From: a virus
Length of the DNA stretch: 60,029 nt
Strand: one strand, 5' to 3'
UHGV virus genome: UHGV-0110462
Below are positions 1 through 46,989 of the stretch, one piece after another. Below the pieces are notes generated by a model. The model was given only the letters and a program-made list of their open reading frames with translations, had not been told where the DNA came from and did no database searches. A program made the translations under genes and the position numbers. The first letter of the stretch is position 1, and every line of letters starts with the position of its first letter.

Positions 1-240
1 CCTCTTTTTGTTTTTGGAAATTTCAGAACGACTTAGCAAGCCGATTTTTCAATATTGATTTAAGGGGGGCCCCCTCTGGTCAGCGTGTCGAACATTTGTT
101 CCGAACATATGAATCTATTGGATAAATCTATATTTGTTCGATAAAGATCACTGTTTTCCATGGATTCCTGTTTAAAATCACTGCAAAGTCAATGATTTAT
201 TTTAACCATATGATTTTCCGTTCTCAAATCTTAAAAAATA

Positions 241-924
241 TCAATCGTTTTCCTCGATCTGTGGCGGTAAATCCTGTCCCAGCTGTGGCAATTGGTCAGC
301 GGTCAGCGGTCTCACCTCCACTTTCTCACGGCTAACGCCTGGAAGGTTCCACATATGGTGCCTGTTCAGTGATGGTAGCACCTTCATAGGATTGATACGT
401 TTATCTTGTAACATTGACTCCAGTGATTGTTCGTTATCGTCCATGATTTTCTTGCGCAAATCGAAATATTTTTTACTTAGTCTATTACTATTACCACCAC
501 TATTACTAGGATTATATTTACTGTTATATCTACTGTCTCTATCCCAGTTATATAGTGTTTGTTTATCTATCCCAGACATATCAGAGAACCCTTTAATATT
601 TACAACTTGGCAGTGTCTATTACAGATTCTCTTGTAAATTTCATAGGCATTCATGACTTTCTCATCGTCATATGTCCCGCCAATGCTGCCATTAATCCAG
701 AGCAGATTCCCGTTCTTCTCGAACAGTGTTATTCTGATCTCCTCGATTATGTCATTCCAGATTTGTGGTGGAATGTCTGATTCGTCAAGATCATCTCTCA
801 TGCAGTAATCAGCGATCACGTCATCGACTAAGGCTCTGAGGTTGACAGGATCGACTTCAACACTTTCAACACTGTTCACTGTCTCGACTTCTACTCTCTC
901 TGTTTTCTGTGCTCTCTTAGCCAT
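241..924 (-). CDS. hypothetical protein (acidic, unknown function); start refined to Met18 of the 241..975 ORF
   Basis: GGAGG 7 nt upstream of the ATG at 924 (minus strand). The longer 241..975 frame runs into the leader terminator. No recognisable motif. Confidence 0.5.
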   Translation of the reverse strand: MAKRAQKTERVEVETVNSVESVEVDPVNLRALVDDVIADYCMRDDLDESDIPPQIWNDIIEEIRITLFEKNGNLLWINGSIGGTYDDEKVMNAYEIYKRICNRHCQVVNIKGFSDMSGIDKQTLYNWDRDSRYNSKYNPSNSGGNSNRLSKKYFDLRKKIMDDNEQSLESMLQDKRINPMKVLPSLNRHHMWNLPGVSREKVEVRPLTADQLPQLGQDLPPQIEEND

Positions 925-956
925 TGTTTTCACCTCCATACTGTCAAATAATCTAT

Positions 957-1122
957 AAACAAAAAGCCTAGACACACCGAGATATTGAACAGCTCATTGT
1001 CTGTTATTTTCTCGATATGCCTAGGCTGACGATTCCTAGCTCTTTTCGATCCAGCTCCCATTCGGCTTTCACGGATTTCTTGTCGCTGATGCTATTATAA
1101 CACAGCGACAATCTGTTTGCAA
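957..1122 (-). promoter_or_regulatory. promoter + conserved 5' leader + intrinsic terminator (copy A of duplicated leader element)
   Basis: Minus strand: -35 TTGCAA (1117-1122), 17-nt spacer, TGn-extended -10 TATAAT (1094-1099). IR TGTCGCTG-N14-CAGCGACA brackets the -10. Conserved leader has a CTAGG/CCTAG stem (1021-1039) around loop AATCGTCAG. A long GU-containing hairpin plus U-tract (957-1026) lies just before the RBS of the 241..924 gene. Confidence 0.6.
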
Positions 1123-1758
1123 TAGTCTCGAGTAAATTAATTTTAATTTTTTATCAAGGCGTGTGCGTCCGTGTATGTGCATGCTCGGCTGTGCGCTTCG
1201 TGTCCGTGTTTTGATAATCAGGACAGACAATGCACTGTTCTGTTGGCTGTGGTTGTCTCTTCCTGGTGTTGTTCATTTCTTGTCTGATCGATTTATTTTT
1301 ACATCGATTTTGGGGAGGTACACAGTCGGTGTTTTCTCAAAACCCGACCTTTTTAAAACTATAGACTGAACGTAGTGAAGGATATAGTTTTGAAAAGTAA
1401 TATATATAATATTATAAATTATTTAGTAAGTCGATTATTAGGGCTGTATCCATTCTGTATCCAATCTGTATACAAATAGCATGATAGTTTGCACAGCGTA
1501 ACATTTGTGAAATCCCTGTTCGCCCTTGTGTTTACTGGCTTAATTGGCATTTGTTAAATATTTATCGTAACAATTTGTTAACAGTTTTGTAACCCTACTT
1601 GCCATATTAGTTTGAACTAACAAGTATTTCAAAAAAAATAGAGCATGAATGACCATTTCTTGCTCTTTTTGCTGTGATGTGTTATGATTTTTTTACTGGA
1701 GAGCGGTGGCAAGTTCCGCCCTCTCTTGTGTGTCTAAGTCGCTTTGTGCGTCTCTTTT

Positions 1759-2079
1759 TTAGTCGTTTTCCTTTGTCCTTGCTACTGTATCCAGAAGCTT
1801 GAGGATCTCTTCTTTTGTGTACGTTTCCTTTGTATCTGCATCAATCAGCAGTCGAATTTCATAGATCATCGCTGCTCTTGCGTCTTTTCTCTCTTTCTCG
1901 TTCATAACGTCCATGTTTTCTCCTTTCTCCGCTTGCCACGGCAACTCGTAAGTATCTCTTACAAGTATTATTGTATCACTTTGTAAAGTTATGTCAATGC
2001 TTTTAAAATAATTCTTGTTTTTTCTTTTCTTCGTCTTTTGTTTCTTCATATATAAGGATGTCTTTTGGCTGTAAATCAA
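1759..2079 (-). CDS. hypothetical protein
   Basis: ORF only; overlaps the 5' end of the XRE ORF in another frame, so the start is uncertain. Confidence 0.35.
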   Translation of the reverse strand: MIYSQKTSLYMKKQKTKKRKNKNYFKSIDITLQSDTIILVRDTYELPWQAEKGENMDVMNEKERKDARAAMIYEIRLLIDADTKETYTKEEILKLLDTVARTKEND

Positions 2080-2242
2080 GAATCATACAGATAGAATTTA
2101 ACGCCCCAAGTGTGATATTTGTTTCTTCGTTCTTAATCTTTCTTAACGTGTCTTGGCTTAATAATCCTGTCTTTTTTGCTTTGTATGTCGTGAATCCAGC
2201 TCTTTCCAGTGCATCCCCAACATTGAATTTGTATTTAAGCAT
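2003..2242 (-). CDS. XRE-family helix-turn-helix transcriptional regulator (Cro/CI-like)
   Basis: Typical HTH_XRE signature: LSQDTLRKIKNEETNITLGALNSICMILDLQP. Divergent from a + strand operon, with TTGACA-17-TATATT in the 2243-2477 intergenic region. Confidence 0.7.
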   Translation of the reverse strand: MLKYKFNVGDALERAGFTTYKAKKTGLLSQDTLRKIKNEETNITLGALNSICMILDLQPKDILIYEETKDEEKKKQELF

Positions 2243-2477
2243 TTGCTTTCCCTCCTTTTATATTAATAAGGATAATACAACACTCTTTACAAGTCAATAA
2301 AATATTATCAAAAAAAGTTATAAATGTGTTGACAGTAACTTTATAAAGTGATATATTATAACCATAGCAAAGAACAAAACAAAAAAGCCGACCGGAGCAG
2401 CTACCAACTAAACCCGATCGGCACCAATCAAAAAAAGAAAGGTAGCTTCATTATAACAGAAGCAAAGGTATTTTACA

Positions 2478-2870
2478 ATGAGTAAAGCAAGAATTGAGAA
2501 TGGAAAAATCTACAAAAGCAGAATGCCATTTTGTGAGGGAACAGACGTTTTTGAAATTGTCGAAAAGATTCCAGCAAATTATTTTGTTTGGAACATCGGC
2601 GAGAACATGGGGGCAGATGAATATATCCCACTTGCTGAAGATCTTCATCCGGAAGATAAAGACAACTATGAAATCAATCGATACACGCTCAAAGCCCTCA
2701 AATTAAGCGTTGAAGAGGTAAAACTGCTGAGACATGCCGCAAATTTTGGTATCGATAGCAAAGCAACAGCTGAGAAAGCTCTGAGAAGTAAACGCCGTGG
2801 ATATATGAGCGACAGAAAAAGAGCAGAAGCAGAAAAAACTATTGATATTTTCAAAAGTATTTCAGAGTAA
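2478..2870 (+). CDS. hypothetical protein
   Basis: First gene of the + strand operon divergent from the XRE regulator. Confidence 0.45.
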   Translation: MSKARIENGKIYKSRMPFCEGTDVFEIVEKIPANYFVWNIGENMGADEYIPLAEDLHPEDKDNYEINRYTLKALKLSVEEVKLLRHAANFGIDSKATAEKALRSKRRGYMSDRKRAEAEKTIDIFKSISE

Positions 2871-3113
2871 AGAGGTGTATATATATGATGTATTGGAAAG
2901 TAATAGTAACATGCCAAGCGAGCAAATACGAAGAGCCATTTGACAGAGAAATAGCGCAATTTATAAATTACGTCAATGCAGAGGATTTTATAAATTTAGT
3001 AATCCCAAAGGAAACAAGAAAACATTTTAGAATTGAGAAAATAGAACGCAAATAGACAGACTACACCGGGGAGCAATCCCCGGAAGTCTTGAGCAGATCA
3101 GGAGGACAATAGC

Positions 3114-3317
3114 ATGATTAGTATTGATATGTGGTACAAGAACAACCCAAAAGAAATAACCGGAATAGATTGGAGCTTTAGCGATTTAGATTGCGTTTAT
3201 CATGGCAATGTTTACAAGGACGGGAAAACAATCGGAGACTTTACAGCGGACACAATGCAGGAAGTACAAGAAGCGTTCCCACATTTAGCAGAAGCAATCG
3301 ACAAGGCATTAAACTAG
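3114..3317 (+). CDS. hypothetical small protein
   Basis: AGGAGG-like RBS (caggaggacaatagcATG); immediately precedes the FtsK-like gene. Confidence 0.45.
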   Translation: MISIDMWYKNNPKEITGIDWSFSDLDCVYHGNVYKDGKTIGDFTADTMQEVQEAFPHLAEAIDKALN

Positions 3318-3338
3318 AAAAACGGAGGACTTGAGAAA

Positions 3339-4100
3339 ATGAAAGCACAAAGAAATTGGATCACACCGGAGGGAAAGTATTTTATCGATTATGAGAACAT
3401 GATGGAGCAGCCACACTTGTTAGTGGCTGGAGCTACCGGATCAGGAAAATCGGTAGTAATTAATGGAATTATCACGACTGCACTGTTCGAAGCACCGTCG
3501 CAAGTACAGTTCATTCTTATCGACCCGAAAAGGGTGGAACTCGTAGACTATAGATATCTTCCGCATACGGTGTTCTATGCATCCGAACCGGCTGAGATGG
3601 TCAGAGGATTGCAGATGGCTATGAATACAATTGAAATGAGATATACACAGATGCAGAGAGCACACGAGAAGAAATACCAGGGAGCGCAGTTGTATGTGAT
3701 TATTGACGAATTAGCGGACTTAATGACAACGAATAAAAAACAAGTCATGCCACTGATTCAACGTATCGCACAAGTAGGACGTGCCGCCGGTGTTCATCTG
3801 ATCTGCGCGACTCAATGTCCGCTCGCAAAGGTAATTCCAACAGAAATCAAGGTCAACTTTGATGCCCGTGTGGGACTGCGTACAAGGTCAGCGCAGGACA
3901 GCAGAAATATACTAGGCTTTAACGGTTGCGAGGATTTACCGCGATACGGACAGGCATATTATATGAATCCTGATAGCGGAGTCAAAAAAATAGTTGTTCC
4001 GATGTATGACAAGTGCGAAACATGGCGTTTGATTAATCACTGGATGCAGCAGCGCCCACCGAAAAAGAAAGGATTCTTCGAAAGATTGTTTGGAATGTAA
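3339..4100 (+). CDS. FtsK/SpoIIIE-family DNA translocase ATPase domain protein
   Basis: Walker A VAGATGSGKSV and Walker B LYVIIDELAD. Family-typical sequence IDPKRVEL...LICATQCP. Confidence 0.8.
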   Translation: MKAQRNWITPEGKYFIDYENMMEQPHLLVAGATGSGKSVVINGIITTALFEAPSQVQFILIDPKRVELVDYRYLPHTVFYASEPAEMVRGLQMAMNTIEMRYTQMQRAHEKKYQGAQLYVIIDELADLMTTNKKQVMPLIQRIAQVGRAAGVHLICATQCPLAKVIPTEIKVNFDARVGLRTRSAQDSRNILGFNGCEDLPRYGQAYYMNPDSGVKKIVVPMYDKCETWRLINHWMQQRPPKKKGFFERLFGM

Positions 4101-4140
4101 AGAGAACCGGGAGAAATTCCCGGCTCTTTTTGTTTGCTTA
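4101..4140 (+). terminator. rho-independent terminator
   Basis: GAGAACCGGGAGAAATTCCCGGCTCTTTTTGTTTG: GC hairpin followed by T-tract, directly after the FtsK-like stop. Confidence 0.7.
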
Positions 4141-4252
4141 TTTTTGTATGACGCTCTATTTTGCTTTTTAAGACTGCTTTTATCGTTAGGCAAAGAAGTA
4201 TAGCTCAAGCTAATTAAAATCGATTCTAGGCGCATTCTGCGAAGTCACAGAA

Positions 4253-5014
4253 TCAAACTCCGAATTCTTTGTTGTTCTTTTTCTTCCACTCTTCCCGTTC
4301 TGCTTCTTTCTTCTTCTCTTCCTCGGTCATTTCAGAGCCGTTTCGCATTCTTTTGAAATGGTTCACGATGTCTGCTTTGTTTGACTCTTGTATATTCTTC
4401 CAGTAATTTTGACGGCGTTCTTCCTCCGCGGAAATCTTAGCAGCGTCTTCTGCTCTCTTCTTTGCAAGTTCTTCGTTTAATTCCTCAAGAGATTGAATTC
4501 CCTTTTCTTGTGGTTTGTTTTCCTGTTCCGGTTCTTCCAGCAGTTCCGGGTGGTCAACGTACTCTTTTACTTTTGCCAGCACTTCCCCGCCACAAGTGAG
4601 AAGAATTTCTCCTTGAATTACTGAATCAGTCAAGATTGATTCCCCATACTTTCTGACATAGTATTTCGCCTTGACGTCATTTACTTCTTTCATTTCCTGT
4701 TCATATACTGGATCAGGTTTTGACTCCGTGTAGCCCTCTTCCCATGGCATCACTTCAACTGCTGCCATCTGGTCGACCGCTTTCGTCTCTTTTTCGATCT
4801 GCGGAACGCTCTCTGTAGGCTCTAAAATCGGGGCTGTTGGCGTTTCAAGTGATTTAAGCATAGTTTCTACTGCTTCAACGATAAAAGCGTTTATGGTGTA
4901 GTCTAGGCTCTGTATTCGCTCTTTCGTTCCTTTCGGTAATCTAGCTTGCACAATATCAAACTTTGAGTTGTAACGGTTTTGTGCGTCTTTCTGGTATTTT
5001 TTCAATGGAATCAC
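4253..5014 (-). CDS. ribbon-helix-helix (RHH) N-terminal DNA-binding protein with long acidic/coiled-coil C-terminus
   Basis: N-terminus FDIVQARLPKGTKERIQSLDYTINAFIVEAVETM fits the beta-strand/helix/helix pattern of CopG/ParG/omega RHH proteins. Sits next to the iteron array. Confidence 0.45.
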   Translation of the reverse strand: MIPLKKYQKDAQNRYNSKFDIVQARLPKGTKERIQSLDYTINAFIVEAVETMLKSLETPTAPILEPTESVPQIEKETKAVDQMAAVEVMPWEEGYTESKPDPVYEQEMKEVNDVKAKYYVRKYGESILTDSVIQGEILLTCGGEVLAKVKEYVDHPELLEEPEQENKPQEKGIQSLEELNEELAKKRAEDAAKISAEEERRQNYWKNIQESNKADIVNHFKRMRNGSEMTEEEKKKEAEREEWKKKNNKEFGV

Positions 5015-5024
5015 TCCTTTTTAA

Positions 5025-5215
5025 ACGATATCTTTTATATATATAAATGATATATATCTTGCATATATAATAACATATATAAAAGCTATATATCAAGCTA
5101 TATATAAAAGGTATATATAAACACTATATATAAATACTATATATCTATCATATATATCTTTGCTATATATCATTACTATATATCTTTTATATATATCTTG
5201 CATATATAGTTTGCA
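5025..5215. repeat. array of about 14 tandem imperfect direct repeats (core CTATATAT, about 13-bp period); iteron-like
   Basis: Seen directly: ...gctatatatcaagctatatataaaaggtatatataaacactatatataaatactatatatctatcatatatatctttgctatatatcattactatatatc... Confidence 0.7.
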
Positions 5216-5338
5216 TCTAATTGTATTTATATAATGGTATTTAGATTTTTTCTCAAAAATTTCAAATTTCTTCCCTAAAACCGCGAACTTTACTCCGTTC
5301 TGAAAAAATGTTATGATAAAAAGAAAAGGAGTATTGGC

Positions 5339-5508
5339 ATGTACGAGGACATTTTAGAGTACCTGGACAAACGTCTCAAGGAAAATACTCGCGATATCGG
5401 ATCCGCGATCACTTCCAGGGATGTTGATGATATCCACAGATATGAGGGCAGAGAGCAGATGATTCTTGAAATCAAGCGGTTTATAAGGAAAAAGCAAGGG
5501 GAGAAATG
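5339..5508 (+). CDS. small hypothetical protein (56 aa)
   Basis: AAAGGAG RBS 7 nt upstream of the ATG. Followed by a hairpin terminator GGGGAGAAATGATCTCCCC. Below the 60-aa cutoff of the ORF track. Confidence 0.35.
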
Positions 5509-5523
5509 ATCTCCCCTCTTTGA

Positions 5524-5775
5524 TTATTTGCAGAAATTATTCAGCAATTCTTCTTTTAACTCCATCTTCCCGGCTCTAAAACCGAGCTTGAAAGCGTAGA
5601 TCAGTGCTTTTGTCTTCCCCATCTCCACTTTGTCGGCAATCGTAACCAATGGCAGCAGGTCTTCCGCAAAGTAATCTGTAACCACACTGTCGCTGATCGG
5701 GCGAATTTTCTCTTCGATATTATTCAGCGTGCTTCTCATATCGCTGACTTTTACTTTAAGCTTCCTTACTACCAT
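5524..5775 (-). CDS. hypothetical protein
   Basis: ORF translationally coupled downstream of the ORF6N gene. Confidence 0.4.
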   Translation of the reverse strand: MVVRKLKVKVSDMRSTLNNIEEKIRPISDSVVTDYFAEDLLPLVTIADKVEMGKTKALIYAFKLGFRAGKMELKEELLNNFCK

Positions 5776-6499
5776 TCTTTTTCTCCTCTCTATGTTCTAC
5801 CTTTAATTCGTAAAGGCCGTCAATCACGGTTTTTGCACGTTCAGCCATGTCAGGGAAGAAGTCAAATAAATCTAATTTGCTTTCAAGTCTCTTTCCTGTC
5901 CCCATAATATATCTGATTTCTGCTTCCTCAAGGTCGAATTTTTCTTCAATGTAAGGAAATATAAGCTCAAACAAAAATTTTTCTTCGACACCGTAGCTGC
6001 TACAAATAGCTGCTATTTTATATCTGTTTTTTCTGTAGAACGTCACTGGTTTAGGTGCCGGGATGCTAGATACTTTCATCCTCTGCGGAACTTCTGCAAT
6101 GTGGTTATTAGCCACATTGGAATCTTTTCTAGCTCTAAAATAAGTATTCACAAGTCTTCTCTGAACGCTCCACGACAATTCGTCTTTGAACGTCTTGACA
6201 GCCATCAGATATCCGCTCTCTGTCAACAAAACAACATCAAGATTAGGGTTGCCAGCACTCTTATCTGAATTCGGTACGTAATACGTACTGAACTCTGACA
6301 TCGTAACTGTAAAGTAATCTTCGCCCTTAATAAAATGTTCCTTATGACTGTTGAAGTTTCTCTTAGCTGTGCCAGACGGTCTCTGGTGAACTTCATCAAT
6401 GTCCTTGAAAGTAACTACTCTCTGTCCTTTGTATTCTCTGATCGGTAATACTATTTCACTTACTGCTAAATTCTCTTTTGCCATCTTCTTATCCTCCAT
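5756..6499 (-). CDS. ORF6N-domain phage antirepressor-like protein
   Basis: ORF6N-like N-terminus: GQRVVTFKDIDEVHQRPSGTAKRNFNSHKEHFIKGEDYF. Confidence 0.65.
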   Translation of the reverse strand: MEDKKMAKENLAVSEIVLPIREYKGQRVVTFKDIDEVHQRPSGTAKRNFNSHKEHFIKGEDYFTVTMSEFSTYYVPNSDKSAGNPNLDVVLLTESGYLMAVKTFKDELSWSVQRRLVNTYFRARKDSNVANNHIAEVPQRMKVSSIPAPKPVTFYRKNRYKIAAICSSYGVEEKFLFELIFPYIEEKFDLEEAEIRYIMGTGKRLESKLDLFDFFPDMAERAKTVIDGLYELKVEHREEKKNGSKEA

Positions 6500-6657
6500 A
6501 TCAAATTACACTGCTGCCTTTGCTCTTCCTATTCCATCAATCCTTTTGTGAAAATATAAATGGCTCTCAAGAATTTTGCGTTATCCATTTTATTCACCAT
6601 CTGTGCAATTCTTCGTCTGTACCATCTATTTTCTTCGCATCTATCAACGTCTTTCAC

Positions 6658-6849
6658 TTATTTTTCCCCCTTAGACATCATTATAAAATCATACTTTGCT
6701 GCGTACATTTTACAATATTCTGCAAGTTCGGCAAGACTGGTATAGCAGACAAGATTGTCCGCAATGTAATGGAGAATTGCTCTGTTGTCCTCTGGCTTCA
6801 TGATATTCACTTCTAAGTTAATTTCCTGCATAATAAAAACTCCTTTCAA
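6658..6849 (-). CDS. hypothetical small protein
   Basis: ORF only. Confidence 0.3.
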   Translation of the reverse strand: MKGVFIMQEINLEVNIMKPEDNRAILHYIADNLVCYTSLAELAEYCKMYAAKYDFIMMSKGEK

Positions 6850-6957
6850 TTAAAAAAATTGTTCTTGAAAGAAGTCCCCGTCTGCATTATAATATTTGCA
6901 GAAGGAAACTTCTAACTTGGTATGGAACATTGCATTGATTGGTAGTCGGGCAATGTT

Positions 6958-7155
6958 CTATTTTTTTGATGATTCTAAGGCTTTTTGGTAAACATTGTTT
7001 ATGCCCTCTCTTATCACTTCCGATTTTGAAAGATTGAGAGTTTCACAACAATATTCAAGCTTTATGCTGTCAAGAAGAGAAATTCTTATTTCCATTCTTT
7101 TTGTTTTTGGATCATCAGTTGGTCTTCCAGTTCTAGGACTCATATTTCTCACCAC
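6958..7155 (-). CDS. ribbon-helix-helix (CopG-like) DNA-binding protein
   Basis: KRMEIRISLLDSIKLEYCCETLNLSKSEVIREGI fits the RHH strand-helix-helix pattern. Confidence 0.45.
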   Translation of the reverse strand: MVRNMSPRTGRPTDDPKTKRMEIRISLLDSIKLEYCCETLNLSKSEVIREGINNVYQKALESSKK

Positions 7156-7249
7156 CTTTTATGTCCGTACATAAATAATAACTTATGTCCGTACAAATGT
7201 CAAGTATTAATTTCAAAATAATAGGGAAGCATCTGCTCCCCCATTAAAT

Positions 7250-7747
7250 TTACTTTGTTCTTTTTAATAGATAATTCCTATCCCAAACTAACACTCCAAG
7301 AATGTTAGCATATTTTACAGCTTCCCCTGAAAAGTATCCATTTGTTATTATTCCGGCATAATCAGCTTTGCAACGAATCTTTTTTGAATAAACATTGCGA
7401 ATATCTTCTTTGCTTATAAGCTTATTCGCTGGAATCTGCTTACAGTTTGCAACATATGAGTAACCTCTAGAAACAATACTTAGGTCTGTATTGTCTATCG
7501 ATTTCATGTTAAAATTGCGGAACCCTCCTGTCAAAAATACATCTGAACAAAATTTTTTAAATTCATTATAGCTAATAGAATCAAAATCTTTCATCTTTTT
7601 TACTCTAAAAACCGCGAAGATTTTTTTTAAAATAAAGTAACAGATGTAAATTACGATTGTAATTTTATAAATATCTGTAAGAGTTTCCCAAAAGCAACCA
7701 CTTATAGCGGAAATAAATAATATTACCCAAATCAATGCTATCACCAC
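7250..7747 (-). CDS. membrane-anchored restriction-endonuclease-fold (Mrr_cat-like, diverged) protein
   Basis: N-terminal TM helix. C-terminus ...YVANCKQ...AGIITNGYFSGEAVKYANILGVLVWD parallels Mrr_cat but is degenerate. Paralog of the upstream gene. Confidence 0.5.
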   Translation of the reverse strand: MVIALIWVILFISAISGCFWETLTDIYKITIVIYICYFILKKIFAVFRVKKMKDFDSISYNEFKKFCSDVFLTGGFRNFNMKSIDNTDLSIVSRGYSYVANCKQIPANKLISKEDIRNVYSKKIRCKADYAGIITNGYFSGEAVKYANILGVLVWDRNYLLKRTK

Positions 7748-7748
7748 C

Positions 7749-8405
7749 CTACAAAGTATTTTCTTCTATTAAACTTATTTCTTTAATAATTTTGAATACA
7801 TCATCCCTGTCAAATAAGATTATACCTGTCTTACTAGCAAGTTCTATAGCCGAATTTGTAAAATATCGATTTGTTATGACAGCTCCGTAATCGCAGTTGT
7901 AAAATTGCTTACCAGCAATAACTTCTTGAACAGCCCTATTTCCAACATTTCCAGAGAATCTTTTGCACTGAAAAGCATATTTGCATTTATTTTTATAAGC
8001 GATTACATCAACTCCCTGATCTCCACTACCTTTTGTAACTTCTACATTATAATATCCCATTTGTACTAATAAATGTCCGCAAAAATGCTCAAATTCATGA
8101 CCGTCCATTAAATCAATATTAGCTTGTGCTATTCTGATTCTTTTATTTTTAGCATTTTGTTTTTTATAATATTCGTTCCATGAATGGAATGGATAATACC
8201 ACCATGCAACAAATATTACAAAATATAATAATAGCCACCATCCTATAAGGAACCACCAAACAGCACTTCTTTTTCTAAATAATGCAAAAATTTTTTCTTG
8301 CTTATTTTCTTTTATTGGGTTATCAAGAGTTAATAACAATTCTCCACAATTAACACAAAACTTATTCGCATTATCATTGAAAGTTCCGCATTTATTACAG
8401 TACAT
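7749..8405 (-). CDS. zinc-ribbon + TM + Mrr_cat restriction endonuclease-domain protein
   Basis: N-terminus CNKCGTFNDNANKFCVNCG (zinc ribbon), then a W-rich TM segment. Mrr_cat motifs: EFEHFCGHLL...GDQGVDVIA...FQCKR...VQEV...GAVITNRYFT. Confidence 0.65.
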   Translation of the reverse strand: MYCNKCGTFNDNANKFCVNCGELLLTLDNPIKENKQEKIFALFRKRSAVWWFLIGWWLLLYFVIFVAWWYYPFHSWNEYYKKQNAKNKRIRIAQANIDLMDGHEFEHFCGHLLVQMGYYNVEVTKGSGDQGVDVIAYKNKCKYAFQCKRFSGNVGNRAVQEVIAGKQFYNCDYGAVITNRYFTNSAIELASKTGIILFDRDDVFKIIKEISLIEENTL

Positions 8406-8590
8406 TATTTTTCTTCCTCTTCACCATCAATGCCAGCAATACCATAATCCCCATTATCCGGCACAACTCTGCTCTTTCTATATCTCATTTCCATCCCACC
8501 AAGAAACGGAGTCTCACTTCCGTACTTCTTAGCCATTTTCTTGTTATGCTTCTCAACCTTTTTTTTGCCTAAAAATTCTTTCAATCCCAT
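8405..8590 (-). CDS. hypothetical small protein
   Basis: ORF only. Confidence 0.3.
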   Translation of the reverse strand: MGLKEFLGKKKVEKHNKKMAKKYGSETPFLGGMEMRYRKSRVVPDNGDYGIAGIDGEEEEK

Positions 8591-8696
8591 TTTCTTTCCC
8601 TCCGTGATAAAACAACAATTTGTTACCCTCTTATCTTACATAAAACTGCCAGCAGATAATTTCTACTGGCAGGAAAAATTTATATTTTTTCAATTG

Positions 8697-9266
8697 TTAC
8701 TGTACGATTTCATCAAGGTCAAGGCTGTATCCCATAACCTCTCCTACATCTGTACACTTTCCTCTTACTGTAATAGTGTCACCAGTTGAAAGAGTCTTCA
8801 CAGCGTTAATGATATCTTCATCTCCATTTGTGTAGCACTGAACTCCAGTAAGTGCAAAGTCATCATCTTCAGGAAGAATACTAATGTATGATGAGTCGCT
8901 ATCTATATTTGAAAGTTTTCCTGTAATTTCAAGATACTTGTCTTTGTACTCATCAGAAGCTGCTGCTGCATTCTTGTCAAGAGCATCCACCATGTCACCT
9001 ATAGAAACCTGTGTATACTCAATTGTTTCTTCCTGTTTAGCATCTGTGGCAGATTTACTGTTTGAATCACTCTTTGCTGTGGAATCGTCTGATCCACCAC
9101 CGCCCATAGCAGCTCCGATAATTCCAATCACTACAATTGCAATGATAATCCATTTCAGCTTGCCACCCTGTTTCTTTCTACAATTCGGACAAACCTTTGC
9201 TTTCTTTGGTATTTCTGACTGACAATGCTTGCAAATTTTTGTTCCTGTGTTTTTTGAGTTTCCCAT
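8697..9266 (-). CDS. zinc-ribbon membrane protein with extracytoplasmic domain
   Basis: CKHCQSEIPKKAKVCPNCRKKQ zinc ribbon. TM IIAIVVIGIIGAAMG, then a Gly/Ser linker and a C-terminal domain. Confidence 0.5.
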   Translation of the reverse strand: MGNSKNTGTKICKHCQSEIPKKAKVCPNCRKKQGGKLKWIIIAIVVIGIIGAAMGGGGSDDSTAKSDSNSKSATDAKQEETIEYTQVSIGDMVDALDKNAAAASDEYKDKYLEITGKLSNIDSDSSYISILPEDDDFALTGVQCYTNGDEDIINAVKTLSTGDTITVRGKCTDVGEVMGYSLDLDEIVQ

Positions 9267-9563
9267 AATCCTTTTTTCCTTTCTTTCGATATACTGTAAT
9301 TGTATTACATTCTTTTTAAAAACTCAATAGTTTGCATGAAAAAGCACGGATCAACCGTGCAATTTCCGTTACCAAAATATTATTCTTATAGTGTGGATTA
9401 TGCAGCCATGTCAAACAAATCTAAAATAAACTTTCTTCCAATGCTATCGATGACCTCATTTGAAATGACCCCATCTTTTTAAGATACCCAGTTGTTTACT
9501 CCATCTTTCAATCATTTAACAATCAAAGCTACTGTGTTTTACCGTAGCCCTATTTAAATCAAT

Positions 9564-10301
9564 CTATAAAGCAATGCTCATCTGTGAATTCTCGCTAGAA
9601 ATCAGATCATCAAGGAAAATTGGTGGATTGTAGCTCTCAACCATAGTAAGAACCTGTTCGCACTGGTTGCGCTTAATCGCCTTATAGGTTGGTACTCCAA
9701 ACTGTCTACGAACATCACGGTGCAAGTCCTGATACAGCTTCGTTCTCAGTGAGGAATTCTTATAAGCATTGCTGTTTTTACCGCCTAAAACCGCGACTCC
9801 TTTCTTCTTGACTGCTTCGGTGATTTTATCAATCTCAATTGCTAAGAGGGGCATGTCGTTCTTGAAGTCTTCCAGCTGTTTTTCTACAACATTTACTTTT
9901 TGTTCAACCTGTGTAACTCTTTTGTCAACTACAATTATCGCTTTTAATTCTGTAGACAAAGAATCAAGGTCAACAAATTCTCTTTTATTAAAATAGTTAT
10001 CAACCAGATAATCATATACTTCCCAAGCCTTATCTGTATTCAATGACTTTGCGTGAAGCAATGCTCCTTTTTCTGTCCAAAGGTATAATTTATTGAGATT
10101 GTTTGGCAAATCGTGATTTTCACGAAACGCCCTTAATTCATCTCCGGATAAACAAATGAAGTGTTTACCTTCAACATATCTATCTTTGTTATGGTTGAAG
10201 TTGTATGAAATTGTCTTGTTATCAGTTCCATACGCTTCTGCGATCTGCTGTGTTGTTAAAACTCTATTGTTGTTGTATTCTGTTACTTTTAAATCGTTCA
10301 T
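9564..10301 (-). CDS. ORF6N-domain phage antirepressor-like protein
   Basis: ORF6N signature: LTTQQIAEAYGTDNKTISYNFNHNKDRYVEGKHF. RBS AAGGAG upstream. Confidence 0.65.
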   Translation of the reverse strand: MNDLKVTEYNNNRVLTTQQIAEAYGTDNKTISYNFNHNKDRYVEGKHFICLSGDELRAFRENHDLPNNLNKLYLWTEKGALLHAKSLNTDKAWEVYDYLVDNYFNKREFVDLDSLSTELKAIIVVDKRVTQVEQKVNVVEKQLEDFKNDMPLLAIEIDKITEAVKKKGVAVLGGKNSNAYKNSSLRTKLYQDLHRDVRRQFGVPTYKAIKRNQCEQVLTMVESYNPPIFLDDLISSENSQMSIAL

Positions 10302-10574
10302 GCCAAAACATCTCCTTAATTCCTTGTTTAAATGTTAAACAGTTTGCAAGTTTCGAGTTCTCCGTAATTTATGCACATTCCCATTTTGGGAAAAGCCTTT
10401 AAATTCAAGTATTTTCTTTTACATTTAGCATATACATGGCAACTCTTATTTTTTTGTCAGAAATAGCAGAGCCTAACTCAATAGACTCTGCACCGTTCAA
10501 TTCGTAACCAGCCGCATCACTGGTCGGTATTCCGTTTTTCGTATCCAGCACCATCACCGGAGTATATGAGAGAA

Positions 10575-10741
10575 ATAAAAAAGCCTGAGTACGCTGAGAG
10601 TAAAGACAGTATTTTGTACTATCCTTTTTCTCAGTATACTCAGGCTGACGATTCCTGACCCTTGTTGATCTGAATCCCATTCGTTCTTCACATATTTCTC
10701 GTCGCTGATATTATTATAACACAAATGGAATTAATAAACAA
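10575..10741 (-). promoter_or_regulatory. promoter + conserved 5' leader + intrinsic terminator (copy B of duplicated leader element)
   Basis: Minus strand: -35 TTGTTT (10736-10741), 17-nt spacer, TGTG-extended -10 TATAAT (10713-10718). Conserved leader with TCAGG/CCTGA stem (10640-10658) around loop AATCGTCAG. Terminator hairpin plus U6 (10575-10646). Lies about 270 nt upstream of the ORF6N gene at 10301. Confidence 0.6.
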
Positions 10742-11060
10742 CACGAGCAAGCAAAATATTTTCAATCAAATCAGTCAATGAAATAATTTCTCTCGCATGG
10801 TCAGAAATGAAATTGCAAAGGCGTTCCTCTGTTTCTATAGGAAGAGAAATTCCGTAGGTCATACAAACAGCGTGAGTCAGCTCATGGGAAAGGACGCGGT
10901 CAAACATGGTATCTGAGAGACGATTAGACAGATAGATTGTATTGGTCATTCTGTCAGTAACTCCGAGCGTGTAAACACCGTCTGACCGTCTCAGCAGCTC
11001 ACTGGATGGATTTTCATATTGGACATGCCATAATTCATCATTGATATAGAAATTCATCAA
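10731..11060 (-). CDS. putative zinc metallopeptidase (HExxH; ImmA/IrrE- or SprT-like)
   Basis: VLSHELTHAVCMTYGI contains an HExxH motif. Confidence 0.5.
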   Translation of the reverse strand: MMNFYINDELWHVQYENPSSELLRRSDGVYTLGVTDRMTNTIYLSNRLSDTMFDRVLSHELTHAVCMTYGISLPIETEERLCNFISDHAREIISLTDLIENILLARVVY

Positions 11061-11101: not shown

Positions 11102-11743
11102 TTACATCTTATTGATGAGAGTCGCAAGCTTTGATTTTGCAAGAGTTCTTTCTTCCGGCGTCATGTCAGAAATCAGATCAGTCACGTCTTTTCCAAGTTC
11201 TGTCATGTAAGATTCAAGTTCATGCATCTTCGTGTCCTTGTCCTTGTGTGCATCTCTTGCGTCTGTATAGCCACGGCGAGCCATATCATAGCGACTGGAT
11301 GATTTAGGCTCTGTGTAATACATTCTTCCGTGCTTGTCTCTGTCCATGTCACGATCAGTGTCCCAGTCACGATACATCTCAGGAGTCATGTGCCAATAAG
11401 GCGGCTCATTGTATCCTCTTCTCATTCCGTGACCTTTCGGAGCGAATCTGCCGGACTTATAACGGTATTCGTCATAATATCTCCGGGCATCCTCTTCACC
11501 GTACTGGTCTTTGAACATTTTCAGAAGATACTTCTTTTCCTCTTTTTCATCTTCCTCAGCTTCTTCCATAGCTTTTGAGATTCTTGCATGATATTCGGCA
11601 TCTGCAAGGTCTTTAATCATATCGATGACCTGTCCCATCTCACATGTATTAACGTTTTCAATACCGCTAGAAAGTTCAGAACAAGCGCACTCAGAAAGTT
11701 TTTCAATCAATTCATGGATATGTTTGATATGCATAATATTCAC
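11102..11743 (-). CDS. hypothetical charged protein
   Basis: ORF with strongly charged composition: EEAEEDEKEEKKY...RDMDRDKHGRMYY. Confidence 0.45.
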   Translation of the reverse strand: MNIMHIKHIHELIEKLSECACSELSSGIENVNTCEMGQVIDMIKDLADAEYHARISKAMEEAEEDEKEEKKYLLKMFKDQYGEEDARRYYDEYRYKSGRFAPKGHGMRRGYNEPPYWHMTPEMYRDWDTDRDMDRDKHGRMYYTEPKSSSRYDMARRGYTDARDAHKDKDTKMHELESYMTELGKDVTDLISDMTPEERTLAKSKLATLINKM

Positions 11744-12264: not shown

Positions 12265-12489
12265 TTACTCATTCGTCTTGGAAAGAATCTCCAAGATTTG
12301 ATTTTGATTGGAAATTATCTTTTCGAGATACTCCCTGTCCTGTCTCTGCAAGGCTCTTAGCAAGTCATCATTAGACGTTTGCTTCTGATCTTGGTCGTAT
12401 CCAATCATCTGCAAGATAACGGAAAAGACGTTCAACATATCAAGAAAAGAGTAGTTTCCGTTTTGATTGTTGGTCATTAACAACCACAT
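12265..12489 (-). CDS. hypothetical small protein
   Basis: ORF only. Confidence 0.3.
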   Translation of the reverse strand: MWLLMTNNQNGNYSFLDMLNVFSVILQMIGYDQDQKQTSNDDLLRALQRQDREYLEKIISNQNQILEILSKTNE

Positions 12490-13256
12490 CCATTACCGCA
12501 TCCGTAATACACATTCGGGTTAGGTACCTGATATGCCGGGATTGGTGTCGGGTTTACAGCATTGATAATCTGATTTGTCTGAGCTGTCATTGCAGTAGTC
12601 AGAAGAGCATTTTGTCTATCCTGTGAAGCTGCAAGTCTCAGATCGTTGTTCTCAGCCTGTAATGTAGCGATCTTATCCTGGCAGAGGTAATCAAGGATTG
12701 CTCTTGTTCCAGCGTTCTGGCTCTCAATGATGTCACGAGTGTTTGTATTCATTGTGTTCTGCAAAGCGCATGTATCCTGTGCCATGTCAAATCTTACCTG
12801 AGAAATAGCTTCTCTGTTCTGGCAGCAACAATCGGCAAGCTGTGCCTGTAATGCATTCTGACCCTGCATCAGAGCAACATTTGTTGTGTTGAATCCCTGC
12901 TGTGTCTGGTATCCAAGATTGCAGATTGCGTTGTCAATTCCGTGGAATCCATTCATCAGAGCTGTATTCTGAGCGTAAAAGCCATCACACAATCCATTGT
13001 TGATTCCGTCCAGTTTTCCAACAATGTTCTGAGTATCGAATCCCCTCTGAATGTCAGCCTGTGTAGCTACTGTTGCTGCATAACCGCCACCATTTCCGAA
13101 TCCGTTACCAAATCCATTGTTTCCCCAGCCAAAAAGCAGTGCGAATACGACGATGATCCATAACCATCCCCCGTCTCCCCAACCAGCTCCATCAGCGTAA
13201 CCGCCTGTTGCTGGCATGACTGGCATTGTAAAAGGTGTGTTAGTTGAGTTAAACAT
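12477..13256 (-). CDS. Gly-rich / Cys-rich membrane protein of unknown function
   Basis: N-terminus GWGDGGWLWIIVVFALLFGWGNNGFGNGFGNGGG (TM plus Gly repeats). Q/N/A-rich body with CCCQN. C-terminus YYGCGNGCGC. Confidence 0.45.
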   Translation of the reverse strand: MFNSTNTPFTMPVMPATGGYADGAGWGDGGWLWIIVVFALLFGWGNNGFGNGFGNGGGYAATVATQADIQRGFDTQNIVGKLDGINNGLCDGFYAQNTALMNGFHGIDNAICNLGYQTQQGFNTTNVALMQGQNALQAQLADCCCQNREAISQVRFDMAQDTCALQNTMNTNTRDIIESQNAGTRAILDYLCQDKIATLQAENNDLRLAASQDRQNALLTTAMTAQTNQIINAVNPTPIPAYQVPNPNVYYGCGNGCGC

Positions 13257-14611: not shown

Positions 14612-15802
14612 TTATGAAATTTTTTGTTTAAAATCCACGATATTATTTGGCGTATTATCTACCAGTTTTTCAATATCATTAAAAGATTTTTCTTTCGTAA
14701 CATGAGTGTATAAATCAAGAGTCATTTTAACACTTGCATGACCTAAATATGATTGAACAACTTTAGGATCGATTTCATGTTCAAAGCATCGAGTGGCAAA
14801 CGTATGCCTAAATGTATGTCCACTAAAATTTTTGAACAAATCATTGTTCGGTCGCAACAAATTTATTTCTCTTATAACTGCATGTATAGCATCTGCATAT
14901 ATCACTGAATTTATCGGAGTATTGTACTTTGTAGTGAATAAAAAATCATTCTGTTCTTTTGGTCTTTTGCTTGATACTATCGCTTTTTGTTGAATCTGTC
15001 TTTCAAGATATATTTTACAAACGCTGTTTATCGGAACTTTCCTATAACTCTGCTTTGTTTTTGGTTCTTCTAGGTGAAAAGTCTTTCTGGTATCTGTAAG
15101 ATACTTTTGGTACACTAACGTTTTGTTTACATCAATGAACCCATTTTCAAAATCGATATCTGATTCTGTCAACGCAAAAAGTTCTCCTGGTCTCATTCCA
15201 GTATTTACTGCAACATTAAACATATTATCATAAAATGTATTTTTGCAATATTCAAAGAAAATGTTCTGTTCTTCAAGAGTAAGAGATTTTGCTTTAGATT
15301 CCTTCTTGTCTATAACTTTGGTTCCTAAGACCGGGTTTTTTGAAATCAGATTATCTTCAAGAGCTCTAGCCATTAGATCTGATAATATGACTTTGATTTT
15401 ATTTTGCCTTTCATACCCATATCCATTTGTATGAGCCAATGTTATTATTCTTTGAATATCTGATTTAACCAAAGAATTTATGTTGCGATTTCCTATAAAA
15501 GGTGATATATTCTTATTGTATATGTGAGTGTATTCTCTAAGAGTATTAGGGCGTACACTCTTTTCTTTATATATCTTTATCCATTGATTAAACCAATTAT
15601 CCAATTTTACGGTTTCTCTTACACTTACAAATGTTTCATTTTCTGCAATTTTAACAGCAAGATCTTTTCTTAATTCAGATAACTTTTTTGAATATATTGT
15701 CTTTGAATTGCCAAACCTATCTTTATATCTTCCTTGATAGGTTCCGTTTTTTCTTTGAGTTATACCAACTCCTAGTTCTTTTCCTTTTAAATCCTTTCCC
15801 AT
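14612..15802 (-). CDS. int: tyrosine-type site-specific integrase
   Basis: C-terminal catalytic region RPGELFAL...HTFRHTFATRCFEHEIDPKVVQSYLGHASVKMTLDLYTHV carries the R...H-x-x-R...Y motifs. Confidence 0.9.
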   Translation of the reverse strand: MGKDLKGKELGVGITQRKNGTYQGRYKDRFGNSKTIYSKKLSELRKDLAVKIAENETFVSVRETVKLDNWFNQWIKIYKEKSVRPNTLREYTHIYNKNISPFIGNRNINSLVKSDIQRIITLAHTNGYGYERQNKIKVILSDLMARALEDNLISKNPVLGTKVIDKKESKAKSLTLEEQNIFFEYCKNTFYDNMFNVAVNTGMRPGELFALTESDIDFENGFIDVNKTLVYQKYLTDTRKTFHLEEPKTKQSYRKVPINSVCKIYLERQIQQKAIVSSKRPKEQNDFLFTTKYNTPINSVIYADAIHAVIREINLLRPNNDLFKNFSGHTFRHTFATRCFEHEIDPKVVQSYLGHASVKMTLDLYTHVTKEKSFNDIEKLVDNTPNNIVDFKQKIS

Positions 15803-15879
15803 TATTTTTTTGCTCCTTCCATTTACAAAAGAGCCACTATACAGCTACATATTACTATATAAAGGCTCATATTTCAATG

Positions 15880-16284
15880 TTAGACTTCAATCGTTTTTTC
15901 AATATACTTCTCAAATTCTTTTCTTTTAACTAATCTTTTACCTTTTCCAACGCAAAAAAGAAACGGGCATCCTGGTTCGTTCAGCATGGAACTTATCTTA
16001 TTAACACCAATGTTGCTATACTGCGAAGCTTCTTCCACTGTGAGCATTACCTTTTCCCATACAGGAATACTATTATCTTTCAATTTTACTACCTCCATCA
16101 CTTTGGACATTATACTTTTTACTCGTCTGTTTACGGTTGATTCTGAAACAGAAAGTTTTTCCGAAATTTCAATTATGCTTTTTCCTTTTGATAACATAAT
16201 AAAAATTCTCAATTCTTCATCGGTAAAGTTACATTCTTTTATGTAATAATTTATCTCGCTTTTTACACATTTACATAACTTCAT
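15880..16284 (-). CDS. excisionase-family DNA-binding protein with N-terminal LuxR/sigma70-r4-like HTH (start refined to MKLCKC)
   Basis: C-terminus MLTVEEASQYSNIGVNKISSMLNEPGCPFLFCVGKGKRLVKRKEFEKYIE matches the excisionase/HTH_17 pattern. N-terminus LSVSESTVNRRVKSI is HTH-like. RBS AGAGGGA present. Confidence 0.55.
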   Translation of the reverse strand: MKLCKCVKSEINYYIKECNFTDEELRIFIMLSKGKSIIEISEKLSVSESTVNRRVKSIMSKVMEVVKLKDNSIPVWEKVMLTVEEASQYSNIGVNKISSMLNEPGCPFLFCVGKGKRLVKRKEFEKYIEKTIEV

Positions 16285-16518
16285 ACGCGATCCCTCTTTC
16301 AAGGGAGTGGCTAAACCACTATGTCCCGGCTCAAATCCACTCCCATACGTTCTATTCATTCATGTGGCAACTCACTTAAATATTCTCCTTGTTTCTTCAC
16401 AAGGTTAGCTGCTTCATATGGTTTGGTTCTGAAACGTCTAACAGCTTTTACGCTAGGTGCGCTACTCGCAAGCTTTCCGTGTTTTATATCTCCACGAAAC
16501 TTCATTGATTTTGATCCT

Positions 16519-21999: not shown

Positions 22000-22727
22000 G
22001 TCCGTAACTCACTCCATTCAGAAATCTTTCCATTGGCAGAATTTGCAGTAGATGAGCTCTGATTTAAGTAACTCTCAAATTTAGTCCCGAACAATGTCTC
22101 TGGTCTCAAAAACTTGCTCATGTTTGTCCCGTTCCAATCAGCGTATTTCTTGTCAATCACTGCCTTGAAATCATAAACAGTGAAATGTTCATTCAGCCTT
22201 GCTCTAATATGCTTCTGAGTGCTTTGAGTTTGATATCTGTATCTTGCTCCGGTTCTCATATTCAAGTACGATATGATTTCTTTGATTGACTCAATCTGAC
22301 TGCTTGTTTCATCAATTTGTGCGATTTCTCTATCAGATGTGATCTTTTCAGTTGCCGGGACGCATCTCTTATCCATCTGAGATTCATCAAGAGTGTAAGC
22401 CTTGTTCTTTTTCAACCCAAGCATCTTCTTTTCATCGATGCAGTCGGTTGGCTTATATCGGTCAGATTGAATGTAGTTATGCATTCTCCAATGCTTGATT
22501 ACGATAACACCACTTTCAAACGTCAGAATGAATCTCTTCATAATTAACAAGTCATAATCATTGTTTGAAGCACCACACATTCTCTGAATCTTCCGTGGAT
22601 TGCTGACAAATCCATCATCGTCAGCATTCATCGAAAGATGGAAGTAAAGCATCTGAGAGCTGCTAGGCATTCCCAAAAATTCATCTGATTCTGTGATTCT
22701 TTTCGTAAACATTATTCTCTCTCCCAA
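21996..22727 (-). CDS. phage replisome organizer (DnaD-like N-terminal domain + conserved phage C-terminus)
   Basis: Family-typical DDGFVSNPRKIQRMCG...LLIMKRFILTFESGVIVIKHW, with a C-terminal region. Sits upstream of SSB. Confidence 0.6.
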   Translation of the reverse strand: MGERIMFTKRITESDEFLGMPSSSQMLYFHLSMNADDDGFVSNPRKIQRMCGASNNDYDLLIMKRFILTFESGVIVIKHWRMHNYIQSDRYKPTDCIDEKKMLGLKKNKAYTLDESQMDKRCVPATEKITSDREIAQIDETSSQIESIKEIISYLNMRTGARYRYQTQSTQKHIRARLNEHFTVYDFKAVIDKKYADWNGTNMSKFLRPETLFGTKFESYLNQSSSTANSANGKISEWSELRT

Positions 22728-45532: not shown

Positions 45533-45577
45533 GTTTTCACCACCTTTTTACAAAAAATAAAGGATGGTGAACCCATC

Positions 45578-46940: not shown

Positions 46941-46989
46941 TTTTTACCTCCATTTCTGCCATCTAGGCAATAAAAAAGAGCCTTTCGGC

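Follow-up and report, generated by a model that had tools for sequence, protein, structure and literature searches.

A duplicated promoter-leader-terminator module in a gut phage genome as a candidate transcription attenuator of the late region and a variable island

The viral genome UHGV-0110462, a stretch of 60,029 nucleotides (nt) analysed here as a whole and referred to as the window, carries on its minus strand two copies of a promoter-leader-terminator module, copy A (1122..957) and copy B (10741..10575). In both, the 5' arm of a long terminator has 5 nt in common with a small hairpin of the leader RNA, stem-loop 2 (SL2), the two structures being mutually exclusive. A promoter, a leader and a terminator placed directly upstream of a gene, with no promoter in between, make up the layout of a transcription attenuator in the generic sense, and this is the layout found here. 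We propose, as a tentative reading to which we give somewhat less than an even chance, that each copy is a cis-acting attenuator opened by a trans factor that stabilises SL2.

Anatomy and covariation of the two modules

The duplicated element, with its coordinates and strand, had been put forward in a first-pass annotation of the window, and strand reading, alignment and a repeat search bear it out for both copies. Copies A and B form a 98-nt direct repeat (78% identity, separation 9619 nt); the 13-mer GGAATCGTCAGCC occurs exactly twice in the 60 kb, and a scan of the window with an 84-nt leader covariance model gave two matches only, of 112 and 108.6 bits, the next score being 19.6 bits. Identity reaches 64/84 positions (76%) in the leader and 19/32 in the promoter region, where it falls mostly within the extended -10, and the flanks beyond the two modules are unrelated to each other by alignment. 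The first 16 transcribed nt are almost the same in the two paralogues, and conservation extends over the first ~65 nt at the 5' end of the transcript. The parts of both modules and the gene following copy A are listed below; versions of the two copies in other genomes are called type A and type B.

1117..1122, minus strand: copy A -35 hexamer TTGCAA, invariant in 25/25 type-A variants, adjoining a hypervariable spacer
1094..1102, minus strand: copy A extended -10, TGtTATAAT, with a 17-nt spacer to the -35; TGn is kept in the variants (TGCTATAAT)
~A1090-A1087, minus strand: predicted transcription start of copy A
1049..1076, minus strand: tentative stem-loop 1 (SL1) of copy A, AUCCG/UGGAU, with an 18-nt loop holding the conserved GUGAA..CGAAUGGGA
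1021..1039, minus strand: SL2 of copy A, a candidate antiterminator, CUAGG - AAUCGUCAG - CCUAG, whose 3' strand opens the terminator 5' arm
966..1026, minus strand: terminator hairpin of copy A, with a lower stem of 17 base pairs (bp) and a small upper stem; U-tract 965..957
241..924, minus strand: gene X (227 amino acids, aa), the first gene after copy A, with ribosome-binding site (RBS) GGAGG at 937..933
10736..10741, minus strand: copy B -35 hexamer TTGTTT, overlapping the 3' end of an IrrE/ImmA-like gene
10713..10721, minus strand: copy B extended -10, TGtTATAAT, with a 17-nt spacer to the -35
10668..10695, minus strand: candidate SL1 of copy B, AUAUG/CAGAU, with one A-G mismatch
10640..10658, minus strand: SL2 of copy B, a candidate antiterminator, UCAGG - AAUCGUCAG - CCUGA
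10583..10645, minus strand: terminator hairpin of copy B; U-tract 10582..10575

The strong sigma-A-like promoter noticed earlier, with its 17-nt spacer and extended TATAAT, is present in A and B. No other U-tract-associated hairpin on the minus strand of the 60-kb window is as strong as the two terminators (-31.6 kcal/mol in A, -36.0 kcal/mol in B), and the fold z-scores are -4.0 for A and -7.2 for B. Only 33 nt separate terminator A from the gene X start codon, and this variable interval holds an RBS but no conserved promoter. Candidates for a third copy did not stand up: GACAAGAAAT recurs at 1284..1275, 22154..22145 and 58729..58738, at each place without promoter or terminator, and the 19.6-bit match of the covariance model (58785..58708) lies inside a coding region.

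Helices were counted on an alignment of 17 variants, with slid-partner controls, as follows.

Terminator helix: 17 pairs, 97.6% of cells paired, 4 pairs changed on both sides; slid controls 20-50% paired, with at most 1 such pair
SL2 (5 bp) with a possible 4-bp outer helix: 9 pairs, 92.8% paired, 3 both-side changes; slid controls 12-56% paired, with none
SL1, AUCCG/UGGAU: 5 pairs, 91.8% paired, 1 compensated (C-G to U-A)

The terminator helix has in addition four pairs that vary on one side only, together with an A-C mismatch in type B, and SL1, a tentative helix, has a single mismatch in type B and two micro-variants that alter one side in a way consistent with pairing. Between A and B the 9-nt SL2 loop is invariant, and in the two SL2 pairs that differ both bases have been exchanged together with the matching positions of the terminator 3' arm, a three-way covariation. 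Once the terminator 3' arm is removed, RNAalifold always settles on SL2. The first description of the covarying stem (CUAGG/CCUAG in A, UCAGG/CCUGA in B, around AAUCGUCAG) and of the way it overlaps the terminator 5' arm is confirmed, and the alternative pairing proposed at the time holds in that terminator and competing upstream hairpin are both kept by compensatory changes.

An independent lineage was sought because the comparison of A with B is essentially one evolutionary comparison. In the sister phage L068 (L numbers denote related contigs and loci) the covariance model gave a weak match of 22.5 bits (E 0.047 for 0.8 Mb, 0.0077 for 0.13 Mb), which leads to a remote third version of the module.

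L068 3263..3414, plus strand: type C, in only one viral contig

Type C has the promoter TTGTTT-17-TGATACAAT and a leader that opens with 5' CAAGAA and goes on with GAUUGGGA. Its SL2 is a 5-bp ACAGA/UCUGU stem around the 9-nt loop UUUCGCCAG, and its 18-bp terminator has a 5' arm whose first nucleotides are the last loop nt followed by the SL2 3' strand, an overlap seen likewise in A and B. When A, B and C are taken together, both bases differ in 3/5 SL2 pairs and pairing holds in 97% of cells, a count favoured by the fitting of the type-C alignment to the covariance model, the pairs being nonetheless plain by eye. The pattern, drawn from only three lineages, argues that SL2 is probably an antiterminator-like structure maintained by selection. 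The 5' tail (GACRA) could also pair with the SL2 loop (UCGUC), in copy A 1084..1080 with 1032..1028, to form a candidate pseudoknot, which shows one compensatory change, A-U to G-C in type C, and has A-C as its central pair in 2/3 types. L068 is a phage whose late operon has an unrelated leader, type C occurring there alone. Type C precedes a Rha-family regulator gene and type B an ORF6N/ORF6C antirepressor; both island copies stand, therefore, before antirepressor-type genes.

Natural variants and recurrence of the design

Relatives were gathered by two pattern scans of viral contigs, one of metagenome contigs and one search anchored on the gene X protein. More than 60 contigs contributed to the 42 distinct variants (200 nt each) so obtained, 25 of which are of type A and 17 of type B, with no other type; the metagenome-scan contigs with a stated source are human-gut assemblies, and the hosts of the wider phage family are Lachnospiraceae metagenome-assembled genomes. 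In the gene-X-anchored sample of 19 loci, which is unbiased with respect to the element, type A is found in 19/19 and type B in every locus that reaches the IrrE-like gene, 7.4-9.9 kb upstream, and the genomes of the window's phage group have exactly two copies each. As to more distant occurrences, the three pattern scans returned only near-identical type A/B sequences and no diverged members, and a looser scan gave mostly chance matches among the matches listed. No match was obtained by BLAST of the element against isolated phages, by BLAST of gene X against phages or by tblastn of gene X against 72,556 plasmids. A search of Rfam, already suggested when the element was noticed, was run on the window and on both copies and gave no family for it: at gathering score Rfam 15 recognised only tRNAs in the window, and permissive scans of A and B yielded only chance-level eukaryotic matches. 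Since it has no Rfam match, we take the leader RNA to be undescribed.

Natural variation bears directly on two alternatives. The -35 hexamer and TGnTATAAT are invariant on either side of a type-A spacer that is hypervariable (GATTGTCGC, GATTTTCGT, GGAATCCTG, GATCTTAGC and others), which argues for a real promoter in which the spacer sequence is immaterial. The operator-like inverted repeat TGTCGCTG-N14-CAGCGACA (1110..1103 and 1088..1081) reported around the -10 by the first-pass annotation does exist in the window, but it is perfect only in the window's copy A; its upstream half, which in A lies within the hypervariable spacer, carries one to several mismatches in other type-A variants and is missing from copy B. 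It is thus highly improbable that the module is a plain duplicated promoter with a DNA operator and a terminator of no regulatory role, whether the operator be sought in this perfect 8-bp repeat or in the nearly identical segment +1..+16 (ATCAGCGACRAGAAAT); such an arrangement would also leave unexplained the conservation of 65 nt of transcript and the compensatory changes in two competing helices.

Attenuation by a leader peptide, in which a ribosome translating a short upstream open reading frame (uORF) would melt the terminator, could call on an ATGGGA start shared by both copies (ATG at 1060..1058 and 10680..10678), from which the frame runs into the terminator with its first 13 codons similar. 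This ATG is, however, replaced by ACG in copy A of L008 and by ATA in L030/L111, it has no in-register equivalent in type C, and no Shine-Dalgarno sequence was found before the uORF in a genome whose genes use GGAGG. Moreover, only 2/6 codon changes are synonymous, and neither the length nor the C-terminus of the peptide is conserved. The loss of the ATG in variants and the missing Shine-Dalgarno make a leader peptide very unlikely, to the point that we give it next to no credence, and they favour an RNA element over a conserved peptide, as had been supposed.

The design itself recurs well beyond this leader. Where the gene X homologue is 42-57% identical, the gene is at most loci preceded by a consensus promoter, 80-250 nt of leader and a terminator with a long stem, the terminator lying 0-60 nt from the RBS of the homologue. 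These diverged leaders belong to at least five unrelated sequence families, with one large group devoid of a terminator; the window-leader covariance model (R1) finds none of the families, and analogous leaders at seven related loci correspond to no Rfam family. At the position equivalent to copy B, a sister group (G1) has a different promoter, a short leader and a terminator, and a Rha homologue in another phage is preceded by yet another promoter-leader-terminator module. A second copy of their own gene X leader was not found within +-10 kb in the diverged phages, so the duplication is specific to the window's phage group. No description of a promoter-leader-terminator design in gut Lachnospiraceae phages was found in the literature searched.

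This recurrence weighs on the idea that A and B are two paralogous genes for trans-acting small RNAs (sRNAs), with terminated products of ~130 nt and downstream expression by leaky read-through only. Each unit does combine a strong, constitutive-looking promoter with an efficient terminator, and it is the 5' 65 nt that the paralogues conserve, as sRNA genes might. Yet the unrelated leaders of the sister phages also end in a terminator directly before the same gene, which points to cis control; gene X has no other promoter, the competing SL2 pairing has been maintained, and no complementary target above chance was found in the phage genome. We therefore consider a pair of sRNA genes distinctly improbable.

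Two of the diverged families deserve a description of their own. In G3 (L071/L073/L079/L092/L097/L100/L107) the leader lies ~120 nt upstream of the gene X homologue and contains a hairpin with a covarying stem and a conserved loop, GAUGCGCCCGGAG, complementary to a downstream GGGCGC, with pseudoknot or alternative folds involving the terminator; it looks like a structured riboregulator outside Rfam. In G2 (L047/L049/L057/L105) a promoter, a 5' hairpin (AAGCUC-AUACGA-GAGCUU) and UACACGAUUAAG are conserved upstream of the gene X homologue. Other RNAs were met in the related phages, namely ROOL, RAGATH-27 and int-alpA RNAs in the variable region from gene X to terL, and the opposite strand carries type II hammerhead and pistol ribozymes upstream; none of these five was found in the window.

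L044 15229..15803; L075 15289..15372 and 7820..7885; L085 17657..17738; L092 8289..8358; L070 7287..7356: sites of ROOL, RAGATH-27 and int-alpA RNAs and of the ribozymes

Besides, a suppressor tRNA with anticodon UUA, encoded by L070 at 12458..12529, is a hint that some members of the phage family recode a stop codon.

Genomic setting and proposed mechanism

Related contigs connect positions 1 and 60029 of the window, a circularly permuted phage genome (~60 kb) whose genes lie mainly on the minus strand. Downstream of copy A the order is gene X, small ORFs, a tRNA cluster, terL, portal, major capsid and endolysin, by which copy A is seen to head the late region. Gene X, possibly a small terminase, is a core gene that opens the late region across the whole phage family. 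Copy B sits between the end of a block of genes for a 140-aa, a 213-aa and the IrrE-like protein, syntenic in the whole family and closed by the IrrE-like gene, and the start of a variable island. From B to A this accessory island holds two ORF6N antirepressor-type genes, two Mrr-type nucleases, an FtsK-like ATPase and an XRE regulator, its content varying among close relatives. The first-pass annotation had placed the element upstream of two island genes; this stands for copy B, which heads the variable island, but not for gene 924..241, which is a conserved core late gene.

57.0-57.7 kb: tRNA cluster
56149..54404, minus strand: terL
53607..52126, minus strand: portal gene
30963..29884, minus strand: endolysin gene
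11060..10731, minus strand: IrrE/ImmA-like gene with an HExxH motif, its stop codon overlapped by the copy B -35
9564..10301, minus strand: ORF6N/ORF6C antirepressor-type gene, the first island gene after copy B

In the attenuator that we propose, a strong sigma-A-type promoter with no conserved operator would start the RNA, the first ~65 nt of which would fold into SL1 and SL2 with their conserved loops, the SL2 3' strand doubling as the first part of the 17-bp terminator 5' arm. By default the much more stable terminator would form, releasing a leader RNA of ~130 nt and keeping off the downstream genes, which lack a promoter of their own. A trans factor, most likely a protein produced at an earlier stage of infection or induction, would recognise the conserved 5' tail and loops and hold SL2 closed, and the terminator could then not nucleate. 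Copy A would thereby gate the late packaging and morphogenesis operon and copy B the accessory island headed by the antirepressor; one leader being common to both, we propose that they answer the same signal. Regulated termination, stabilisation of SL2 as the regulated step and a protein effector are thus what we infer from the anatomy of the modules. In plasmid pLS20, terminator stems longer than ~14 bp resist processive antitermination borne by RNA polymerase (PMC10325885), which suggests that a 17-bp terminator would be more easily bypassed by sequestering its 5' arm than through a modified polymerase.

Several observations weigh against such a switch. SL2 has only 5 bp, to be set against a terminator of -32 to -36 kcal/mol, and the covariation comes from three lineages (A, B and C) and very few independent events; the outermost SL2 pair is broken in L004, a type-B variant, and the possible outer helix in the GATCA type-A variants. 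Pfam and PHROG recognised no family of antiterminators or RNA-binding proteins among 56 window proteins, which include those encoded just upstream of both copies as well as two false-frame opposite-strand ORFs. The hairpins that precede essential genes inside the late operon are not explained by a purely local switch. Finally, the 5' hairpin of G2 is joined to three different downstream hairpin/terminator modules, which fits better a terminator-independent mechanism.

The search for a partner offered few candidates. The IrrE/ImmA-like gene was considered as the regulator and set aside, its product being HExxH peptidase-like and no obvious antiterminator; it is ~100% identical within the window's leader group and 32-59% identical in all others. 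The upstream proteins of 213 aa (encoded at 11743..11102), 140 aa and 259 aa gave no informative families in Pfam or PHROG, and a search of the window for an antisense or trans partner RNA gave only chance 9-11-mers. The SL2 loop and its neighbours read CGUCAGC (1034..1024 and 10653..10643) and include the codons CGU, CAG and AGC, read by three phage tRNAs; a link of these triplets with Arg-ACG, Gln-UUG and Ser-GCU is probably a coincidence, the same tRNAs occurring with unrelated leaders.

The swapping of terminators behind the G2 hairpin would be more readily understood if the leader were a processive antitermination site of the nut/put/qut kind, i.e. if leader RNA or promoter-proximal DNA loaded a factor onto the polymerase or modified it, so that it passed the leader terminator and then every terminator met further on, in the island as well as along the ~30-kb late operon. 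Two copies per genome just past promoters that head two long transcription units, and two stem-loops with conserved loops within a ~65-nt leader, would suit such a site. So would the terminator-like hairpins inside the late operon (56197..56163, before terL with no room for a promoter; 51879..51848; 46991..46978; 45579..45561) and inside the island (10491..10466, 8672..8646 and 5518..5496), and a constitutive promoter followed by a nearby terminator resembles lambda PR'-tR'. Polymerase modification does not, however, require the three-way covariation of the SL2 5' strand with the terminator 5' and 3' arms; terminators with long stems are refractory to at least one processive system from Gram-positive bacteria (PMC10325885), the 56 proteins scanned include nothing like Q, N or NusG, and the internal hairpins may be partial terminators that set stoichiometry. 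A processive site appears to us rather unlikely, but it is the chief rival of local attenuation and one to be taken seriously, and the two mechanisms are not mutually exclusive.

The loops, invariant on covarying stems, and the ON-switch layout, in which the 3' helix of an aptamer overlaps the terminator 5' arm, are also what a factor-free sensor would present, SL1, SL2 and the possible pseudoknot binding a small molecule, an ion or a tRNA and so stabilising SL2. The single compensatory change in the 5'-tail/loop pseudoknot adds to this, and the isolation of type C in a phage with an unrelated late leader suggests that no phage-specific partner is needed. Nevertheless, the leader is no Rfam riboswitch, it forms a narrow family of three types in one phage group, and sister phages carry unrelated leaders at analogous positions, unlike metabolite riboswitches; the pseudoknot has its A-C mismatch in two of three types and the match of CGU/CAG/AGC to phage tRNAs is not specific to the leader type. 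An ON-riboswitch is accordingly unlikely. A broader conjecture, doubtful in our opinion, is that, throughout a large family of human-gut Lachnospiraceae phages, the heads of late operons and antirepressor cassettes carry diverse and rapidly evolving structured leader RNAs (at least six families, unrelated in sequence but alike in architecture) that act without any phage protein. If this were true, put-like polymerase-binding RNAs or host-signal ON-riboswitches would directly gate the lytic late programme and the antirepressor, and the window element, with its possible pseudoknot of 5' tail and SL2 loop, would be the first tractable example.

Some further features of the genome lie around the modules. 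The interval that separates the antirepressor gene from the copy B terminator includes ~130 nt of noncoding sequence (10565..10437, minus strand) with two hairpins and the terminator-like stem 10491..10466; this segment is 88-91% identical in the sister G1 phages despite their unrelated upstream leader, has no Rfam match and a fold z-score of only -1.9, and may be a separate conserved RNA or a 5' untranslated region element. Just upstream of the late promoter, a long noncoding region holds short direct repeats (1475..1442, minus strand, of the GGATACAGA type), and short direct repeats of the TAGATTTAGATTAAGATT or GTATAGGTTAGG type occur at equivalent positions in sister phages; they may be packaging (cos/pac) recognition repeats. 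Downstream of gene X lies a GC-rich palindrome, GGGGGCCCCCC (76..63, minus strand), within an AT-rich noncoding stretch of 240 nt that reaches to the next ORF (60021..59737). Among tRNA-Gln(UUG), tRNA-Arg(ACG) and tRNA-Ser(GCU) there is a 61-nt tRNA-like sequence (57288..57348, minus strand) with most of the anticodon arm missing, which scores 52 bits with the Rfam tRNA model and is not called by ARAGORN. An intergenic gap of the island (5028..5234) is occupied by an AT-rich array with a repeat period of ~13 nt (TATATATC type) and an iteron-like appearance. Finally, 16359..14612 (minus strand) encodes a Tn916-type tyrosine integrase beside a 159-aa fusion of a GerE/sigma-70-region-4-like helix-turn-helix with Tn916-Xis, a pair set in the middle of a minus-strand gene block and not adjoining the CI-like repressor at 29179..29829.

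Relation to known systems

Known paradigms of late-gene control in Gram-positive hosts are transcriptional activators of the RinA/ArpU type. The human gut abounds in uncultured Lachnospiraceae phages, in which late-gene control is, to our knowledge, essentially uncharacterised. The module suggests another arrangement, with a constitutive promoter and the decision taken at the leader terminator, and the same switch before the antirepressor island would link morphogenesis and antirepressor expression to one signal. Being compact (~130 nt), the element makes clear mutational predictions, and the sister phages provide natural swaps of leaders and terminators. This makes it a convenient starting point in the search for the factor responsible and in the annotation of similar modules that RNA-family libraries now miss.

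The lambda late switch, PR'-qut-tR' (6S RNA) with Q, shares with our modules a strong constitutive late promoter, an efficient terminator within ~130-200 nt and a short RNA as default product; as in PR'-tR', late genes would need antitermination, as proposed here, and an upstream gene abuts the promoter, here in copy B. Unlike in the Q system, conservation lies in the transcribed leader and not between -35 and -10, a competing hairpin that Q does not need covaries with the terminator, and there are two copies per genome. The spacer between -35 and -10 differs from A to B and varies among the type-A sequences, which argues against a Q-binding element (QBE) in the lambda position. No member of the Q family (PF06530, PF03589, PF06323) came out of Pfam scans of the 56 window proteins, among them every protein encoded upstream of A and B; an analogue unrelated to this family may exist. 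Closer in number and placement are putL/putR of HK022 and nutL/nutR of lambda, again two related RNAs per genome just past the promoters of two units. The put sites consist of two stem-loops, which in cis and with no help from phage proteins render RNA polymerase resistant to termination, and the nut sites contain a hairpin; a two-stem-loop leader as in put is plausible here, judging by the predicted SL1 and SL2. However, put and nut do not overlap the terminators they suppress, unlike SL2, and no boxA-like element or N-like protein was identified in our case.

The ribonucleic antiterminator (RAT) recognised by BglG, SacY and LicT offers the same geometry, a small hairpin with a conserved loop that overlaps the 5' arm of a much stronger terminator, with termination by default and, in our proposal too, read-through once a factor binds the hairpin. 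Its sequence is unrelated and it serves catabolic operons, whereas phage late genes are concerned here; no CAT or PRD domain occurs in the scanned window proteins. ANTAR leaders have two tandem hairpins with hexanucleotide loops (A1, G4), as against loops of 18 and 9 nt in our leader, and the scanned proteins contain no ANTAR domain. Another Gram-positive mobile element, pLS20, drives its long conjugation operon from a strong promoter, with a zipper-type attenuator (cATT) in the leader and a processive antitermination system (conAn) (bioRxiv 10.1101/2025.11.24.689506; PMC8191782; PMC10325885). Its leader likewise forms mutually exclusive attenuator structures, is poorly conserved in sequence among relatives and uses long-stem terminators, but it extends over 456 nt, against ~130 nt here, and relies on an extended zipper stem in place of a small hairpin; gene X, in addition, has no detectable plasmid homologue.

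Comparison with Rfam, with Q, PRD and ANTAR proteins, with translatable uORFs and with plasmid homologues of gene X assigns the element to no named family. The position of copy B recalls in turn the ant genes of P1 and P22, which are under RNA-level control: in P1 (c4 RNA/icd-ant) and P22 (sar RNA/ant) the antirepressor is held off at the RNA level, including by premature termination. These phages use trans-acting or antisense RNAs, whereas no antisense partner or complementary site was found in the window. The element belongs to a known kind, the terminator/antiterminator leader, and forms part of a sequence-diverse design, recurrent in phages of gut Lachnospiraceae, of which the searched literature gave no description.

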